A stretch of 4,878 bases of DNA, from the IMG/VR virus record IMGVR_UViG_2648501318_000008; one strand, given 5' to 3'. The notes under the pieces are model-generated. The model worked only from the letters and a program-made list of their open reading frames with translations. It ran no database searches and was not told the origin of the DNA. The position numbers and the translations under genes are program-made. Origin of the DNA: a virus. Taxonomy: Duplodnaviria > Heunggongvirae > Uroviricota > Caudoviricetes. Positions 1 to 4,878 of this stretch are shown here, piece by piece. Position 1 is the first letter of the stretch; each line of letters opens with the position of its first letter.

Positions 1-534
1 AATCTTGGTCAGCCAGCAGGCACGACACCGGAAGCCGATTCAGCGTATGCGCTGAAAGCCGATTCGGGCGCTGTGCAGCAGGTGATGACCGCAAGGCCGG
101 AGCAATCACACCAACTGCAGCAGCCTGAAGCCGATTCCGCCATTCAGCGGGAAGCCGATCGGGTAGTCCCGGAAAACACCGGGCAGCCTGTGGGACGAGT
201 GGATTATCCGGATGTGTTCGAACAGGTCTGGCGGGAATACCCGTTGCGTGCTGGGGCAAACCCGAAGAAATCCGCTTTCAGTGCTTGGAAGGCCAGATTA
301 CGCGAGGGGGTGTCACCAGAGGCCATGCTGGATGGCGTGAGGCGTTACGCAAGATACCTTGCGGCTACCGGGAAAACGGGAACGGAATTTGTTCAGCGAG
401 CGACGACGTTTTTTGGACCGGACCGGAATTTTGAAAACCCCTGGCTGCTCCCGGTAAGCGGCACGAACAACCAGCGTTGTGTGAATCATATTTCTGAACC
501 GGATACCGAAATTCCACCGGGCTTCAGGGGGTAA
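1..534 (+). CDS. Phage replication-initiator-like protein, C-terminal part (5' end lies upstream of the window)
   Basis: Frame 1 is open from base 1 to TAA at 532-534, so the gene starts upstream. Translation contains FEQVWREYPLRAGANPKKSAFSAWKARL...NPWLLP, which matches the pattern I recall for the conserved phage C-terminus found on replication initiation / replisome organiser proteins (F..W..YP....KK.A...W.K). Position upstream of nin-like small genes fits. Family assignment is from memory, not a search. Confidence 0.55.
   Translation, partial: NLGQPAGTTPEADSAYALKADSGAVQQVMTARPEQSHQLQQPEADSAIQREADRVVPENTGQPVGRVDYPDVFEQVWREYPLRAGANPKKSAFSAWKARLREGVSPEAMLDGVRRYARYLAATGKTGTEFVQRATTFFGPDRNFENPWLLPVSGTNNQRCVNHISEPDTEIPPGFRG
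27..166. repeat. Four iteron-like direct repeats (core GAAGCCGAT[TC]) inside the replication gene; candidate origin
   Basis: Core copies at 31-41 (GAAGCCGATTC), 56-66 (AAAGCCGATTC), 127-137 (GAAGCCGATTC), 151-160 (GAAGCCGATC), arranged as two pairs about 25 bp apart. They encode a repetitive EADS/KADS/EADR linker. By analogy with lambda ori, whose iterons lie inside the O gene linker. No adjacent AT-rich tract is visible. Confidence 0.3.
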
Positions 535-574
535 GTGTTAATTTCTGGTCATGAGGTAATTTTCAGGAGGACTT

Positions 575-985
575 GTGGCAAAAGTTTTTACACAAGAAGA
601 GCGAGAAAAAATTAAAGGGCAGGTTGTTGAACTCGTACGCCAGAGTGGGCGTGAGACGTTACGGCAACTGGAAGTCAAAACAGGTGCGACAAGATATCTG
701 ATGAGCGTTCTTGCCAGAGAGCTGGTTGCTAGTGGCGATGTATACAACTCTGGTTACGGGTTATTTCCGTCTGAACAGGCTCGTAAGGACTGGCAAAATG
801 CCCGCAAAAAATTATCGAGGGCAAAGCTGAAGAAACCGGTTGTGGTTGATCCGGACCTTATCTGGTCATTACCTGACGGAGAAATACGTCGCTACGACAG
901 TCGCCTAAACATAATCTGTCGCGAGTGCCGGAAGAGCGAAGTTATGCAGCGCATATTGTCGTTTTATCAGGGGAATTTTCAGTAG
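575..985 (+). CDS. Hypothetical phage early protein, 136 aa, possible winged-helix N-terminus
   Basis: GTG start at 575 preceded by AGGAGG at 565-570; ORF ends TAG 983-985. No recognisable catalytic motif. The overlapping minus-strand ORF 538-747 has no comparable signals. Confidence 0.55.
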   Translation: MAKVFTQEEREKIKGQVVELVRQSGRETLRQLEVKTGATRYLMSVLARELVASGDVYNSGYGLFPSEQARKDWQNARKKLSRAKLKKPVVVDPDLIWSLPDGEIRRYDSRLNIICRECRKSEVMQRILSFYQGNFQ

Positions 986-1054
986 GTGGTGCTGTGAGTG
1001 AAATTAGCTATCAGGCTTCAATTGCCGCTGGCATTCGCATCAAAGGAGAGGAGC

Positions 1055-1411
1055 ATGGAAATAAAACCAGAAGATGAGTTAAGTAATATTGTTTTATTTC
1101 CGGTAAAAGAGGATGACCCACGTAATCAGGTTAATTTTCTTTATGAGCCATCGGAAAGACCATACTGCCATCACGCCTCTGTCCGGGTTGACGAAAAAGA
1201 TCGCCAGGTCCGCTGTAAAATCTGCGGTGCAGTTGTGGAGCCATTTGACTGGATGCTCTCTGTGGCGAAAAGAGAAACCAGGCTGGCAGATGATGTAAAG
1301 CTATTGCGCCAGGAGGAACAGGAAAGGCGGAAAAATATAGAAAAGTTAATTCAGATTGAGCGTAACGCGAAAGCGCGGATACGCAGGGCGACAAAATCCA
1401 TAACTGAATAA
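1055..1411 (+). CDS. Hypothetical protein with zinc-ribbon-like C-x-H-H...C-x-x-C motif and basic coiled-coil tail (118 aa from ATG 1055; track start 998 is a GTG further upstream)
   Basis: ATG at 1055 preceded by GGAGAGGAG; motif PYCHHASV...(14)...CKICGAV; C-terminal LLRQEEQERRKNIEKLIQIERNAKARIRR is heptad-like and basic. Stop TAA 1409-1411. Confidence 0.55.
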   Translation: MEIKPEDELSNIVLFPVKEDDPRNQVNFLYEPSERPYCHHASVRVDEKDRQVRCKICGAVVEPFDWMLSVAKRETRLADDVKLLRQEEQERRKNIEKLIQIERNAKARIRRATKSITE

Positions 1412-1447
1412 TTAAATTTAGCACTGTAAATAAAATCAAATCCTTAA

Positions 1448-1500
1448 CCGGAGGGATTTCTGCACCCTCAAATCATCCGGAGGCCGCCCGAAAGGGCGGT
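1448..1500 (+). promoter_or_regulatory. Structured intergenic element: direct repeat CCGGAGG (1448-1454, 1477-1483), each copy opening a stem-loop; the second is a GC stem with GAAA tetraloop
   Basis: Hairpin 1: GAGGG 1451-1455 pairs with CCCTC 1465-1469 (9-nt loop). Hairpin 2: CCGCCC 1484-1489, GAAA, GGGCGG 1494-1499. No U-tract follows on either strand, so it is not a classic intrinsic terminator. It resembles boxB-like or RNA-processing hairpins and sits between the replication module and the small-gene block. Confidence 0.3.
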
Positions 1501-1535
1501 AATAAAAATGGCTGAACTAATCGGAGAATAAAACG

Positions 1536-1718
1536 ATGAAAAACCGTAAAGCAAAGATTCTGTTAGTTCGTAGAAACGCTCCTGGCGTCTGGCAGTGGGT
1601 GAGACTCAGCAACCGACGGATGGGGTTAATGAAACATTACGGGATGATGGATTGTGGTTTTTGCAAAAAGCCTACCGCGGCACAGAACAGGCGGAAGAAA
1701 GGGTACGCAGTACGATGA
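1536..1718 (+). CDS. Small basic protein, 60 aa, paralog A of a tandem pair
   Basis: ATG 1536 with GGAG at 1523-1526. Shares MKNRKAK, QW.R.SNRR and AAQNR blocks with the next ORF. Stop TGA 1716-1718 overlaps the next start (ATGA). Confidence 0.45.
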   Translation: MKNRKAKILLVRRNAPGVWQWVRLSNRRMGLMKHYGMMDCGFCKKPTAAQNRRKKGYAVR

Positions 1719-1906
1719 AAAACCGTAAAGCAAAGATGCTTATTTCCCGTGTATACAGACGTTGCCATCCCAGCCAGTGGTTGAGAGTTAGCAATCGCCG
1801 TGTGGTGTTGTACTTATATTCTGGAATTGCCAGAGAGGGAGTCAAAGATAAGCGCAGCGCGGCGCAAAACCGCTGGAAAAACCACTTGCGTACTAAAGGA
1901 GAGTGA
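1715..1906 (+). CDS. Small basic protein, 63 aa, paralog B of the tandem pair
   Basis: ATG 1715 lies inside the track ORF 1595-1906 and overlaps the stop of paralog A. The 26 nt around the start (ACGATGAAAAACCGTAAAGCAAAGAT) are identical to those around the paralog A start. Differences in the conserved SNRR block are synonymous (aac/aat, cga/cgc, cgg/cgt), which argues for real coding sequence. Confidence 0.45.
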   Translation: MKNRKAKMLISRVYRRCHPSQWLRVSNRRVVLYLYSGIAREGVKDKRSAAQNRWKNHLRTKGE

Positions 1907-1907
1907 T

Positions 1908-2123
1908 ATGGCTATCGCTGCAAGTTACACCATGCATCTCTATTGTGATTGCCTCCAGTGTACAAATGGCAAATATAAGTCGCCAGATTTTGGTGAGTAT
2001 ATCGGTACGTCATGGGCTGGCTGTGCAAAAGAGGCACGTAAAGATGGGTGGCGAATAAGCGCCGACAAAACGCGTGCTTTTGCGCCAGGGCATAAAATTT
2101 TGAGGAGCAACAAAGGAGAGTGA
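1908..2123 (+). CDS. Small Cys-rich protein, 72 aa (CDC..C...C), possible zinc finger
   Basis: ATG 1908 follows AAAGGAGAG and a TGA-T-ATG junction with the upstream gene. Cysteines at 13, 15, 18 and 39. The track ORF 1800-2123 is an N-terminal extension without a ribosome-binding site. Confidence 0.45.
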   Translation: MAIAASYTMHLYCDCLQCTNGKYKSPDFGEYIGTSWAGCAKEARKDGWRISADKTRAFAPGHKILRSNKGE

Positions 2124-2124
2124 T

Positions 2125-2343
2125 ATGCCTACATTATTCAGAAAAGAATATCCGCGAAAAAGTAGAGCGACAGAATTTTTGTTTCTCATTCTGTTTATCG
2201 TGTTGATGATACCGATATCCCCGCTATTACTGGCCTGGATAATCGGAAAAGTAATTGAGCCCGTTATTGAATTGTATAACGACGTTGTATGGGCCCCGTT
2301 CAACACACTGCACAATAAAATTAATCCGTATAAGGAAAACTGA
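2125..2343 (+). CDS. Small single-pass membrane protein, 72 aa
   Basis: ATG 2125 after an identical AAAGGAGAGTGATATG junction. Hydrophobic segment FLFLILFIVLMIPISPLLLAWII (about 23 aa) flanked by basic residues. Confidence 0.45.
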   Translation: MPTLFRKEYPRKSRATEFLFLILFIVLMIPISPLLLAWIIGKVIEPVIELYNDVVWAPFNTLHNKINPYKEN

Positions 2344-2344
2344 T

Positions 2345-2608
2345 ATGGCAACTTTGACAAAAAAAGAACAGGCATGGTTGAACGAATTACAGGACGTCAT
2401 TGATCGCTGTCCATCACCGAAAAAAATTGGCTTTTACACCATTGGCGATAAAAACATTTACCTGTATGACCTACGCCGCATGGATGAAATCATGGAGGCT
2501 CTTGATAATCGTTCGTCGGTGGATTGGTGTGTTGCTGTTCATGATATGAATGCAGGGTTTGATGAAAAGATTTTGTTCCCCTCATCAGTTGAAAGCACTG
2601 CGGGTTAA
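2345..2608 (+). CDS. Hypothetical protein, 87 aa
   Basis: ATG 2345 in a third TGA-T-ATG junction (2341-2347). The track ORF 2255-2608 extends upstream in frame, but the internal ATG fits the coupled-junction pattern. Stop TAA 2606-2608. Confidence 0.45.
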   Translation: MATLTKKEQAWLNELQDVIDRCPSPKKIGFYTIGDKNIYLYDLRRMDEIMEALDNRSSVDWCVAVHDMNAGFDEKILFPSSVESTAG

Positions 2609-2618
2609 GGAGTAACAC

Positions 2619-2963
2619 ATGACCACTTTTACCAGAGAGCAGTTAATAACTCACGCAGAGGAGACTATTGAAGCACAGAGACTGTGCATACCAGGCACAA
2701 TCGACCATGACATCATCCGCACATATAAAATGGATATTGCTGTTTTGGAAATCGCATTGGCATCGCTGGCAGCAGAGCCAGCCGGTAAATTGCATGAATA
2801 CAAACCAGTGGGATATCAGCGTCTGGTCGACGAGTTAACCATGCTGGTAAAGCAGTTAACCTGGCAACTGAGGAAAGTGAAGCCGGACTGTAAATTGCCG
2901 GATAAGGCGATGGACTACCTGAAGCGGAACGAACTGATAAGCGCGGAGGATGTTTTGCGATGA
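2619..2963 (+). CDS. Hypothetical protein, 114 aa
   Basis: ATG 2619 with AAGGAG at 2607-2612 (6-nt spacing); clean ORF to TGA 2961-2963. Confidence 0.55.
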
Positions 2964-3043
2964 CCTGGCCTGAAGCATTCACAACGGTAGGAATTGCAAT
3001 GGCGGTGGCGCTGGTGGTGTATTCGATTTGCCGCTGGGGTTGA
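2960..3043 (+). CDS. Possible small hydrophobic peptide, 27 aa ([27 protein letters not shown])
   Basis: ATG 2960 overlaps the upstream stop (ATGA), suggesting translational coupling. Almost entirely one transmembrane-like helix. Below the ORF-track size cutoff; no homology check possible. Confidence 0.25.
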
Positions 3044-3073
3044 CGAAAACGGAGGCACAAAGTTATATTTTCT

Positions 3074-3109
3074 CTGTGTGGTCGGTAACTCGCCCACACA
3101 GTTTGTGTT
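3074..3109 (+). terminator. Candidate intrinsic terminator closing the phage small-gene operon
   Basis: Perfect 8-bp inverted repeat CTGTGTGG (3074-3081) / CCACACAG (3094-3101) with a 12-nt loop, followed by TTTGTGTT. The loop is long for a terminator, so an operator is an alternative. Confidence 0.35.
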
Positions 3110-3125
3110 CGTAAAAATACCATGT

Positions 3126-3134
3126 TGTTAGAAT
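3126..3134 (+). promoter_or_regulatory. Candidate extended -10 promoter (TGtTAGAAT) for the AT-rich cassette
   Basis: TG at 3126-3127 and TAGAAT at 3129-3134, about 25-30 nt upstream of the cassette's first start codon. No good -35 hexamer, which is consistent with an extended -10 promoter. Confidence 0.3.
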
Positions 3135-3159
3135 GTCGTATGCGGATTCATAAGGATAA

Positions 3160-3453
3160 ATGATGAAATTCACAGGGCTACAGTCGTCAGCGTTACCTGA
3201 TACTTCTGATTCAGTAAAAGAGTGTGTGAATCTCGGGCAGTGGATGCTGTTCAAATCTTATGCGCATGAAGTAACCACAACATTTGAAGTGGTGTTTTTT
3301 CTGAAAACTGGCGATGAAATATTTGGTTTGAATGAAAGAGGGCAAATAACGTCCACCCAAATTACTGAACATTTAAGCATCGATGAGCTTTTTTACTTTA
3401 TTGATATACCAAAGCCACCATCTTTCAGTAATGCAATGCCTCCTAAATATTAA
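3160..3453 (+). CDS. Small acidic protein, 96-97 aa, first gene of the AT-rich cassette; unknown function
   Basis: Tandem ATGs at 3160 and 3163; AAGGA at 3152-3156 fits the second better. Net acidic by my count (about 12 D/E versus 7 K/R). AT-rich. Its translation-initiation region GATTCATAAGGATA matches that of the downstream gene at 13 of 14 positions. Confidence 0.55.
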   Translation: MMKFTGLQSSALPDTSDSVKECVNLGQWMLFKSYAHEVTTTFEVVFFLKTGDEIFGLNERGQITSTQITEHLSIDELFYFIDIPKPPSFSNAMPPKY

Positions 3454-3493
3454 CAAAATTTTAACTTAAAACATTCGAATCATAAGGATATGT

Positions 3494-4390
3494 ATGAGCC
3501 TTAGGTCTGAGCGTACGAAATGGGTTATGTTTTTGCCTTGTTCTAAAGAAGAAGTTGAATCGCGCCACGTTTTGGATATTGTTTTTGGCGTGCTATGTCT
3601 TGAGAAGGCCGGTATAAATCCACGAGACATATCAATATATATTGACAGCCCTAACAGGAATTTTGATGATTTTTTTTCATCAGCCTCGAAGTATCCTTAT
3701 GCGTCAAAAGCATCAGCAGATTTCTTTAATGACTTGCGTGATAATAACTACAATAACATAGTAATGTTTGTTACTGGTCATGGTTGCCCACAAGGACTGG
3801 ATGCAAAAAATCCTATTACTCCTCATCAACTTCTCAAGGCTTTAAAAGGAGCACCTAATTTAAACAATGCTATTGTTTATTTTGGACAGTGTTATGCAGG
3901 TACGTTCAATTTTGTTGGGGCGGGTAAAAGAAAGGATGGCGAGCCTGAGGTTGTTTTAATTGGGGCGACTAATCTTACTGAGAGTCTGAGTATAGCGACT
4001 ACTGAAACGTTTCTTGATGGAGATGAATTTCCTTGGACGGCCAATATTTTTCTCCTTCATGTTTTTAAATGGATGTCAAAACCTTCTGATATAGATGGTG
4101 ATGGCCGTTATACTGTAATGGATTCTTATAAGCATGCTGGTATTTTTACTAACTTTGTGAATAAAAAAACAAAAACAGATATGTTTGGTGAGATAATTAA
4201 TATGCATGCAGAGTGTAATAAACTCATGGCACTGGCTTCTTCGGGGACAGGGAATTGGATAATTGATACGACAAATGAGTTAAATTATAAAGCCAAAAAA
4301 ACACAACTACAAAATTTATTGATTGCGCACCACACTCATCAAGAATGTTGGATATTAAATGCAAGACCAGCGCAAAAAATTGAGTTTTGA
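3494..4390 (+). CDS. Putative clan CD / family C13 (legumain-like, caspase-fold) cysteine peptidase, 298 aa, no signal peptide
   Basis: ATG 3494 with AAGGA at 3484-3488. Hydrophobic strand then His-Gly (NIVMFVTGHG, His96) and hydrophobic strand then Cys (AIVYFGQCYAG, Cys133), 37 residues apart. N-terminal KWVMFLPCS...RH...AGINPRDISIYID and later VVLIGATNLTESLSIA parallel, from memory, legumain KHWVVIVAGS...RH...NGIPDEQIVVMMYDD, FIYFTDHG, VFYIEACESG and NVYATTAANPRESSYA. Needs profile or structure confirmation. Confidence 0.6.
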   Translation: MSLRSERTKWVMFLPCSKEEVESRHVLDIVFGVLCLEKAGINPRDISIYIDSPNRNFDDFFSSASKYPYASKASADFFNDLRDNNYNNIVMFVTGHGCPQGLDAKNPITPHQLLKALKGAPNLNNAIVYFGQCYAGTFNFVGAGKRKDGEPEVVLIGATNLTESLSIATTETFLDGDEFPWTANIFLLHVFKWMSKPSDIDGDGRYTVMDSYKHAGIFTNFVNKKTKTDMFGEIINMHAECNKLMALASSGTGNWIIDTTNELNYKAKKTQLQNLLIAHHTHQECWILNARPAQKIEF

Positions 4391-4696
4391 CTAATCGTTA
4401 TGTCAATTAATTACAATAACGACTTATCATGGTGAGCAAAAACGGTTTGCGGGAAAAGGAGAGTTAAGTAGAATTGCTGCGGGTGCTTGAGGCTATCTGC
4501 CTCGGGCATGAACACCAAAAGGCAGATAGAGAAAAGCCCCAGTTAACATTACGCGTCCTGCAAGACGCTTAACATTAATCTGAGGCCCAATCTATGTCTC
4601 ACAAATGTAGGTTAGCCTCTTACGTGCCGAAAGGCAAGGAGAAGCAGGCTATTGTTAACACCAAGCTGTAATGTCCCCTTTGAACCATTCTAAAAT

Positions 4697-4726
4697 GTCC
4701 CCAGACAATTCTCTGGGGGATTTTTC
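4697..4726 (+). terminator. Canonical intrinsic terminator immediately upstream of, and overlapping the ribosome-binding site of, the transposase-like gene
   Basis: Stem CCCCAGA 4699-4705 / TCTGGGG 4712-4718 (plus flanking T-A and G-U pairs), 6-nt loop CAATTC, then GGGGGATTTTTC with five Ts at 4721-4725. The GGGGGA inside the stem is the likely Shine-Dalgarno for ATG 4727. Confidence 0.5.
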
Positions 4727-4878
4727 ATGATCAAAGAGACTGTTACGATGAGTCATAAGGAACTCCACCGACTTCAGATTATTCAGGAGTCAATTAATCG
4801 ACATATTACTCAGGAACAAGCTGCGGCACGCATTGGCATTTCTATTCGGCAGGTTAAACGTCTGGTGCAACGGTATAG
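4727..4878 (+). CDS. Transposase-like HTH protein, N-terminal fragment (IS element, possibly ISNCY or IS481-type); continues past the window end
   Basis: ATG 4727 (alternative in-frame ATG 4748). Translation MIKETVTMSHKELHRLQIIQESINRHITQEQAAARIGISIRQVKRLVQRY is a classic N-terminal helix-turn-helix of IS transposases (compare IS21 IstA ...IATQIGCSERTVRRYLK). Family is from memory and uncertain; IS boundaries are not determinable here. Confidence 0.45.
   Translation, partial: MIKETVTMSHKELHRLQIIQESINRHITQEQAAARIGISIRQVKRLVQRY

Follow-up and report, generated by a model that had tools for sequence, protein, structure and literature searches.

The stretch at positions 4391–4726 of a viral DNA of 4878 bp (the whole of which is hereafter the window) lies between an open reading frame (ORF) of 298 aa and an ORF that starts at 4727 and runs past the window end, and it raises the question of what a structured segment of some 330 bp represents at this place. 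The window is the early region of a lambdoid prophage, in the order 3′ part of a replication-protein gene with iteron-like repeats, string of nin-type small ORFs, and two-gene insert. A sequence-only reading had treated the stretch as one unit, either a small RNA (sRNA) transcribed towards the transposase-like gene or the left end or leader of an insertion sequence (IS). Our analysis strongly indicates that it is made up of two joined units with separate histories, the regulatory half of a hok/Sok locus and the left end of an ISEsa1-type transposon, which meet at 4652/4653, just before the last base of the hok start codon. The interest of the stretch lies in what this junction reveals about the transposon. 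On balance, we favour the reading that ISEsa1-type elements are not targetless IS of 1.6 kb but toxin–antitoxin (TA)-carrying transposons that home to hok translation-initiation regions on plasmids and prophages. They would read the leader DNA 5′ of the hok Shine–Dalgarno sequence (SD), duplicate the segment from SD to ATG, split hok from mok/Sok and place it behind relBE, and would thus have created the relBEF arrangement of Escherichia coli K-12.

The upstream unit is identified by the Rfam model RF01794 ('sok'), which despite its name matches the sense strand of hok mRNA. The model aligns in full (positions 1–157) to 4481–4653 on the plus strand with 114.3 bits (gathering score 59, E = 2e-26), and its final three consensus positions, AUG, fall on window positions 4651–4653 (AUU). 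It is the sole real match in an Rfam scan of the whole window (E up to 1); a snoRNA match was discarded as noise (21.9 bits against a gathering score of 70). Similarity to Qin-type hok leaders begins at 4437. E. coli 14EC029 and three other complete genomes are listed with 100.0% identity to window positions 1–4652, and past 4652 the 14EC029-type allele continues as ...GGCTAT-G-AAG-CAG-CAA..., which is an annotated HokD of 51 aa, with no IS. Thus, 4437–4652 is the regulatory half of a hokD-type locus and not IS DNA. Intact hokD follows the leader in locus L002. In the window, the break at 4652/4653 splits the hok ATG and is not followed by a Hok ORF, which marks the locus as disrupted rather than intact.

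The downstream unit begins at 4653. In all 170 left junctions, collected from genomes, plasmids, metagenomes and viral contigs, TGTTAACACCAAGCTGTAATGTCC(CC) follows differing DNA, and the same 26 bp abut 38 clusters of flanks. The 50 aa encoded between 4727 and the window end match Pfam HTH_28 and HTH_23, and a full-length orthologue (446 aa) with the same sequence in this part reaches 465.5 bits against NCBIfam NF033594 (ISNCY family transposase), for which the cut-off is 250, and carries the PGAP name 'IS1202-like element ISEsa1 family transposase'. These junctions and the break in identity with the empty site place the boundary at 4652/4653, and related copies show a 15-bp duplication. The proposal of an IS left end or leader therefore stands for 4653–4726 (74 bp) and falls for 4437–4652, which 14EC029 holds at 100% without the IS.

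The features of the upstream unit and its flank are as follows, with the names of the leader elements taken from PMC9841398.

4391–4436, plus strand: 3′ flank of the 298-aa ORF, outside hok module and transposon, with the AT-loop hairpin 4395–4422
4469–4474, plus strand: predicted −10 hexamer TAGAAT of the hok promoter, 6 nt before the hok mRNA 5′ end at 4481
4481–4652, plus strand: hok mRNA leader (RF01794 and consensus structure of 16 leaders)
4481–4488, plus strand: tac element of the hok leader
4493–4529, plus strand: hairpin of the hok leader
4534–4540, plus strand: ucb/anti-SD element AAGCCCC of the hok leader
about 4537–4582, plus strand: sokT hairpin of the hok leader
4582–4585, plus strand: mok SD GAGG
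4594–4671, plus strand: truncated mok-type frame of 25 codons from the ATG at 4594, its TAA now inside the left inverted repeat of the transposon
4615–4619, plus strand: dcb element GCCUC of the hok leader
4626–4635, plus strand: GNRA hairpin GCC-GAAA-GGC of the hok leader
4638–4641, plus strand: hok SD GGAG
4638–4652, plus strand: left copy of the target-site duplication (TSD), GGAGAAGCAGGCTAT (15 bp), the right copy lying beyond the window
4651–4652, plus strand: first two bases of the hok ATG, end of the leader
4530–4601, minus strand: Sok-type antisense RNA gene with predicted ends; its 5′ tail overlies the SD and start of mok, and a terminator hairpin with U-tract comes next
4609–4637, minus strand: predicted Sok promoter, with −35 TTGCCT (complement of 4632–4637), 17-nt spacer and −10 TAACCT (complement of 4609–4614), overlapping dcb

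A consensus structure was derived from an alignment of 16 diverse hok leaders, all taken as flanks of the same mobile element. It retains the tac/ucb stem (GGUGCUU 4482–4488 with AAGCCCC 4534–4540) and the mok SD/dcb stem (GAGGC 4582–4586 with GCCUC 4615–4619), the pairs of both being kept in 15–16 of the 16 leaders except for the second mok SD/dcb pair (A-U), kept in 13. The stem of CTATCTGCC (4493–4501) and GGCAGATAG (4521–4529), noticed in the sequence-only reading, is conserved in the 16 leaders and gains support from covariation, with compensatory changes at two pairs (UA/AU/GC and UG/CG/AU). The GNRA hairpin noticed there is likewise conserved in the family, its stem being kept in 15–16 of the 16 leaders, with loops that read by eye as GAAA, GCAA, GCGA, GGAA, GUAA and GGGA. 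An AGCCT/AGGCT stem described around this hairpin does appear in the minimum-energy fold, at 4614–4618/4646–4650, but the family pairs GCCUC 4615–4619 with the mok SD. The listed sequence features all exist, a few with coordinates off by one. The hairpin at 4395–4422 has its 7-bp stem but is weak, a 50-nt fold giving −6.5 kcal/mol (z = −1.1), no better than chance. The remark that the stretch lacks a convincing ORF holds for ORFs of at least 30 aa but passes over the 25-codon mok frame at 4594–4671.

In the uninterrupted allele this mok frame runs in frame into hokD (19 + 51 = 70 codons), in agreement with the 70-codon ancestral hokD mentioned in PMC6379469. With hok/Sok type I TA loci the module shares the tac/ucb and mok SD/dcb pairings, the mok frame and a putative antisense Sok with 5′ tail and terminator hairpin, as well as a score above the Rfam gathering score and, in the uninterrupted allele, a coding region for a 51-aa HokD-type toxin. 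It differs from them in that the toxin gene is detached, the leader stopping at the second base of the hok ATG, in that mok is in frame with hok in this lineage (the 70-codon frame), and in that the 3′ fbi element, if still there, would be kilobases off behind the transposon.

The proposed sRNA directed towards the transposase gene finds no support; the small RNA gene of the stretch is the predicted Sok, on the opposite strand and pointing away from that gene. The minus strand folds at −30.4 kcal/mol over 4530–4600 (z = −5.6), followed by CUUUUCU. All 16 leaders have the GCCUC...GGGGC hairpin and U-tract despite differing loops, and in each of the 16 the hairpin is 6–17 kcal/mol more stable on the minus strand, because several of its pairs are G-U on that strand. 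The two copies of TTAACATTA, reported as a direct repeat, are the two arms of this hairpin; they start at 4543 (not 4542) and 4569, and 2 of 200 shuffles also gave two copies. The hexamers TTGCCT and TAACCT lie at the place expected for the Sok promoter, and it is because they are too weak for the threshold of the consensus scan that this promoter is given as predicted. The Sok promoter of R1 lies in dcb, where PMC9841398 places a promoter mutation. Upstream of the leader, four loci that otherwise differ there have GTAGAAT at a constant distance from GG(G)TGCTTGAGG. We infer the hok, Sok and tnp promoters from such positions. The insertion at 4653 leaves the Sok gene and its predicted promoter whole; in the inserted state the hok promoter would make a truncated leader with which Sok could still pair.

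At the transposon end, four features were assigned.

4653–4678, plus strand: left terminal inverted repeat (IRL), 26 bp (TGTTAACACCAAGCTGTAATGTCCCC), with an exact break from the empty site at 4652/4653
4684–4702, plus strand: inner repeat of the core of the inverted repeat (IR), ACCATTCTAAAATGTCCCC, a 19-nt repeat with 4660–4678 at a spacing of 24 bp
4698–4725, plus strand: hairpin 4698–4719 and T-run 4721–4725, with the tnp SD GGGGGA (4715–4720) in the right arm
4727–4878, plus strand: first 50 codons of the ISEsa1-type transposase, with an N-terminal helix-turn-helix, the ORF running off the window

The IRL matches the reverse complement of the right terminal inverted repeat (IRR) at 19 of 26 positions, with TGT...ACA tips. 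The sequence AATGTCCCC occurs twice, against 0.03 expected by chance, exactly at the positions reported for it (4670 and 4694), and is contained in the 19-nt repeat at 4660–4678 and 4684–4702. It had been suggested that these repeats mark the IS terminus or transposase-binding sites; their layout does fit that of the IS1202 family, a terminal IR with an inner IR-core copy, as given by Harmer, Pong and Hall 2023 (PMC10132070), but the terminus itself is 17 bp further out, at the TGT of 4653. The inner repeat is a probable second transposase-binding site. From the comparison of IRL with IRR, we read a corresponding repeat pair at the right end, with a spacing of 25 bp.

The hairpin at 4698–4719 comprises 8 pairs (5 G-C) followed by TTTTT, its left arm doubles as the inner IR-core repeat, and its stem covers the transposase SD, as the sequence-only reading had it. 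At the ends of IS10 and IS50, hairpins that sequester the ribosome-binding site block translation of read-through transcripts. Here too, a hairpin immediately precedes tnp and includes the SD in the 3′ arm, whereas the left arm being a putative transposase-binding repeat, and the T-run that gives the structure the look of a terminator, set it apart from the IS10/IS50 type. Hairpin and T-run would shield tnp from read-through by sequestering the SD and possibly by termination. In a relative that is 78% identical (L174) the fold is different and the SD is still paired. A candidate tnp promoter (TTGAAC 4680–4685, 18 nt, GACAAT 4704–4709) is weak and failed the scan threshold; transcripts from it would begin within the hairpin, which would leave the SD free.

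The nature of the mobile unit is apparent from complete copies in related loci, in which the layout is IRL, tnp, variable cargo, relB, relE and IRR. Complete copies measure 3301–7694 bp, the exception being one of 2575 bp with most of tnp missing (L010), and every complete copy examined has tnp at the left and relB-relE (aa identity of 93–100%) abutting the IRR. Beyond relE comes the true right end (...CTTCTGCTTTGCGTTGACA, ending ACA), which matches the IRL at 16 of 22 positions, or 19 of 26 as given above; the IRR of complete copies ends ...GCGTTGACA. Duplications of 13–16 bp border complete copies in at least six contexts, among them GGAGAAGCAGGCTAT at the E. coli Qin prophage copy (3301 bp), GGAGAAGAAGGCCAT at an IncHI2 plasmid copy (6093 bp), GATGTTAGCCATG at a Kluyvera copy (4487 bp) and GGAGATGTATGGGTCC at a copy of 7694 bp; at a non-hok site the 15-bp duplication is imperfect. 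In one locus (L001), the left flank reads ...GGAGAAGCAGGCTAT|IRL and the right flank IRR|GGAGAAGCAGGCTATG-hokD. Taking the element together with one copy of the duplication out of the IncHI2 context leaves 236 bp that are found at 100% in the 12 plasmids listed (including NC_005211.1), and 448 records have a best match of at least 99% to this reconstructed empty site. Together with the 14EC029 empty site, this gives two before-and-after pairs.

ISEsa1 is listed in PMC10132070 with 1609 bp, an IR of 15/22, no TSD and no target, and the 13–16 bp duplications contradict the 'no TSD' of that entry. An IRR sought near 1609 bp, the length in ISfinder, matched at best 12 of 22 positions, versus 16 of 22 at the end behind relE. 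Position 1609–1610 is the insertion point of an IS110-type element (ISEsa2) in the IncHI2 copies, and the cargo starts to differ there. A right end just after tnp was rejected; alignment of the downstream DNA gave cargo variation and the ISEsa2 insertion point only. Compared with ISEsa1 as listed, the mobile unit here is different in having 3.3–7.7 kb, relBE at its right end, duplications of 13–16 bp and a preference for hok. With the IS1202 family it shares the NF033594 transposase, the TGT...ACA tips, an imperfect IR of ∼26 bp, an inner IR-core repeat near each end, and site-specific insertion in one orientation beside a conserved site, as in the ISAjo2 group at dif/pdif. Several members of the long-TSD group of that family have 16–17 bp (two others are listed with 27 and 28 bp), to which the 13–16 bp of the element here come close. 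Where it departs from the family is in its target, the translation start region of a toxin gene and not a Xer site.

The preference for hok was read from the left flanks. At least 20 of their 38 clusters are hok leaders cut 15–16 nt after the first G of the hok SD GGAG, one further cluster has this hok site in the opposite orientation, and in several more the hok site was already occupied by another IS. The specificity for hok is a strong preference and not an absolute one. As neither an ATG at another place (L024) nor foreign IS DNA as the duplicated sequence (L008, L029) shifts the insertion point, the determinant probably lies in the conserved box 5′ of the duplication, and the alignments suggest that the transposase probably recognises the conserved ...GCC-GNRA-GGCAA box (...GCCGAAAGGCAA) at this place. 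A motif shared by the ∼12 non-hok sites was looked for and set aside as too weak, only a loose (G)GCAA 5′ of the duplication being present in some. Identity of the element between contexts is 92–99.9% (left) and 99–100% (right), compared with 61–85% for the hok leaders and 63–75% for the hok regions; near-identical elements in diverged leaders imply independent, recent insertions into old loci. Relatives with 85 and 78% identity over the left end occupy the same position in other hok leaders. A description of the true ends of the element, its duplication or its hok preference was not found in the literature.

Other mobile elements were seen in the same loci. An IS481-like IS of ∼1.1 kb (ends TGTATGGGTCCACCACATATTGCAA ... 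TTGCAATATCTGTGTGAACTTACACA) sits exactly on the hok SD (L056, 5672–6765; also L008, L029 and L076) with a 5-bp duplication, GGAGA or GGAGT, sometimes side by side with an ISEsa1-type element. The end of an IS3-family element (TGTCCAACTTTTTGGGGTCAGTACA) lies 3–5 nt 5′ of the mok SD (CGAGGCC) in L007, L008, L014, L173 and L174, ∼60–70 nt upstream of the IRL and inside the Sok terminator hairpin, which points to a third IS that takes up a set place in these loci. Furthermore, a tandem element that shares the IRR lies ∼500–1000 nt upstream of the IRL of L096 and, judged from the ORF sequences, has a GNAT/DUF1778 (TacAT-like) pair, and L174 (10014–12236) holds an ISNCY transposase followed by a helix-turn-helix gene and a RelE/ParE pair. 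These neighbours are elements of the same type with other type II TA modules at the same place.

A recurrent junction might also arise without target choice, if one or a few old insertions had spread by homologous recombination between hok loci or if insertions that disarm hok had been selected. Several observations point this way: one locus (L171) has a foreign leader at the left and Qin hokD at the right, the duplication copies of another (L078) differ by one mismatch, most E. coli copies are one inherited Qin insertion, and selection for harmless sites is compatible with the sequences. We nevertheless regard this explanation as improbable. Crossovers in the flanks would import the duplication of the donor, and hence it counts against recombination that both duplication copies fit the local hok sequence in each context; nor would selection alone set to the nucleotide a position that stays 15–16 nt from GGAG in L024, L008 and L029.

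Considerably less probable is an independent plus-strand sRNA that runs towards the transposase gene and ends at the terminator-like structure 4698–4726. The plus strand at 4481–4735 does fold well (−83.5 kcal/mol, z = −4.4), and a hairpin with a T-run stands at the end of the putative transcript. However, 4481–4652 occurs without 4653–4726 in front of intact hokD, 4653–4726 is found behind dozens of unrelated flanks, and the fold corresponds to the hok mRNA leader as already known; read-through may yield a chimeric RNA, but this would be a side effect of the insertion. Since leader and element are both of known kinds, the stretch itself, a known RNA leader beside a known IS family, is ordinary and makes no case for pursuit as a new sRNA. 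The proposal that the whole 330 bp is an IS left arm or leader with a hok-like leader carried inside the element has the least to recommend it and is barely credible: ∼790 E. coli genomes and many plasmids do join such a leader directly to the element, but the joined leaders differ (61–85% identity) where the element is 92–100% identical, the duplication is the leader's own last 13–16 bp and varies by site, empty sites are known for two contexts, and about 12 flank clusters have no hok leader.

Some observations weigh against the two-unit assignment and hok homing as set out here, or against parts of them. The window stops at 4878, and the cargo, IRR and right duplication copy of this particular element lie beyond it. 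The exact leader variant joined to the element was present in none of the 172 loci nor in complete E. coli genomes; the copy in the window may have arisen by a recent insertion or by recombination. Some 12 of the 38 flank clusters are not hok, and the recognition determinant is deduced from alignment only. A scan of 4200–4878 with the sigma-70 consensus passed no promoter, those of hok and Sok included. Finally, the intrinsic terminator claimed for the end of the stretch is found by the scan as hairpin 4698–4719 and T-run, but this one site compares with 0.6 expected by chance and is not significant alone, and a relative that is 85% identical (L173) keeps the hairpin and has lost the T-run.

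The consequence of hok homing is best seen in E. coli. Because the duplication spans SD to AT(G), hok keeps an SD and start codon directly behind relE, and in the inserted state it would be uncoupled from mok/Sok control. The relB-relE-hokD arrangement of E. coli K-12 matches this state: MG1655 holds the right 2071 bp of the element, followed by IRR, GGAGAAGCAGGCTAT and hokD, its ydfW (L175, 1647174–1647323) is the in-frame last 49 codons of an ISEsa1-type transposase gene, and flxA and ydfV lie inside the transposon as cargo. K-12 Qin relBEF thus has the same relE-IRR-GGAGAAGCAGGCTAT-hokD junction and the same content of flxA, ydfV and ydfW, and differs in the loss of the hok leader and of 1.2 kb at the left of the element, which is exactly the part that the window holds. 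Ramisetty and Santhosh 2016, as cited in PMC6379469, noted that integration of relBE shortened a 70-codon hokD. Among 5426 complete E. coli genomes, a query of 201 bp across the relE-IRR-hokD junction is at least 80% present in 1166, and the left end of 226 bp (4653–4878) is present to the same extent in about 790; the left end directly follows ...GGAGAAGCAGGCTAT in six of the six E. coli copies with upstream flank read. A separate rearrangement was noted in E. coli E2865 (L003, 2960–3000), where a deletion that runs from the DUF977 gene to within ∼20 nt of the end of the hok leader fuses the DUF977 ORF to the transposon end. Two short sequences that resemble each other, GTGCCGGAAG and GTGCCGAAAGG, border the deletion, which also occurs in 16 further loci of this flank cluster.

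The remainder of the window offers features of its own. At 28–159, at least four iteron-like repeats (CCGGAAGCCGAT and relatives) in the 3′ part of the replication-protein ORF likely represent the prophage origin. Two tandem paralogous small ORFs at 1533–1906 share the start MKNRKAK and a repeat of 29 nt with 97% identity (1533 and 1712); the ORF list has the second ORF only as part of a longer one with a GTG start (1595–1906). A start block, AAAGGAGAGTGATATG, recurs at 1895, 2112 and 2332 (window 1895–2351) with a spacing of about 218 bp, each copy spanning the boundary at which one small ORF stops and another begins. The two-gene insert at 3160–4390 (97 and 298 aa) is AT-rich (33–38% GC) in surroundings of 44–59% GC, and both of its genes are preceded by a box GA(T/A)TCATAAGGATA (3145 and 3477). 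Neither product gave a Pfam or PADLOC match, and the 298-aa protein gave none in NCBIfam or PDB sequences either; from reading of the protein only, its VTGHG ... GQCYAG motifs appear to resemble the His/Cys dyad of clan CD peptidases.

If our reading of hok homing is right, ISEsa1 would need to be redefined with corrected ends, duplication and target, which would affect all annotation pipelines that now call 'ISEsa1' and ydfW. We found no description in the literature of a DDE transposon targeting a type I toxin locus; the behaviour would parallel the dif/pdif hunting of the ISAjo2 group. In that case, the hok start region would serve as a general landing pad, as the IS481-like and IS3-family IS also recur there at fixed positions. 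A single-protein transposase, together with a conserved site of ∼25 bp that is common on conjugative plasmids and prophages, would make a tractable model of target choice. For E. coli K-12, the insertion would provide a concrete origin for a hokD that lacks sok and mok and stands behind relBE, and relBE itself, a much-studied 'chromosomal' TA system, would be transposon cargo.

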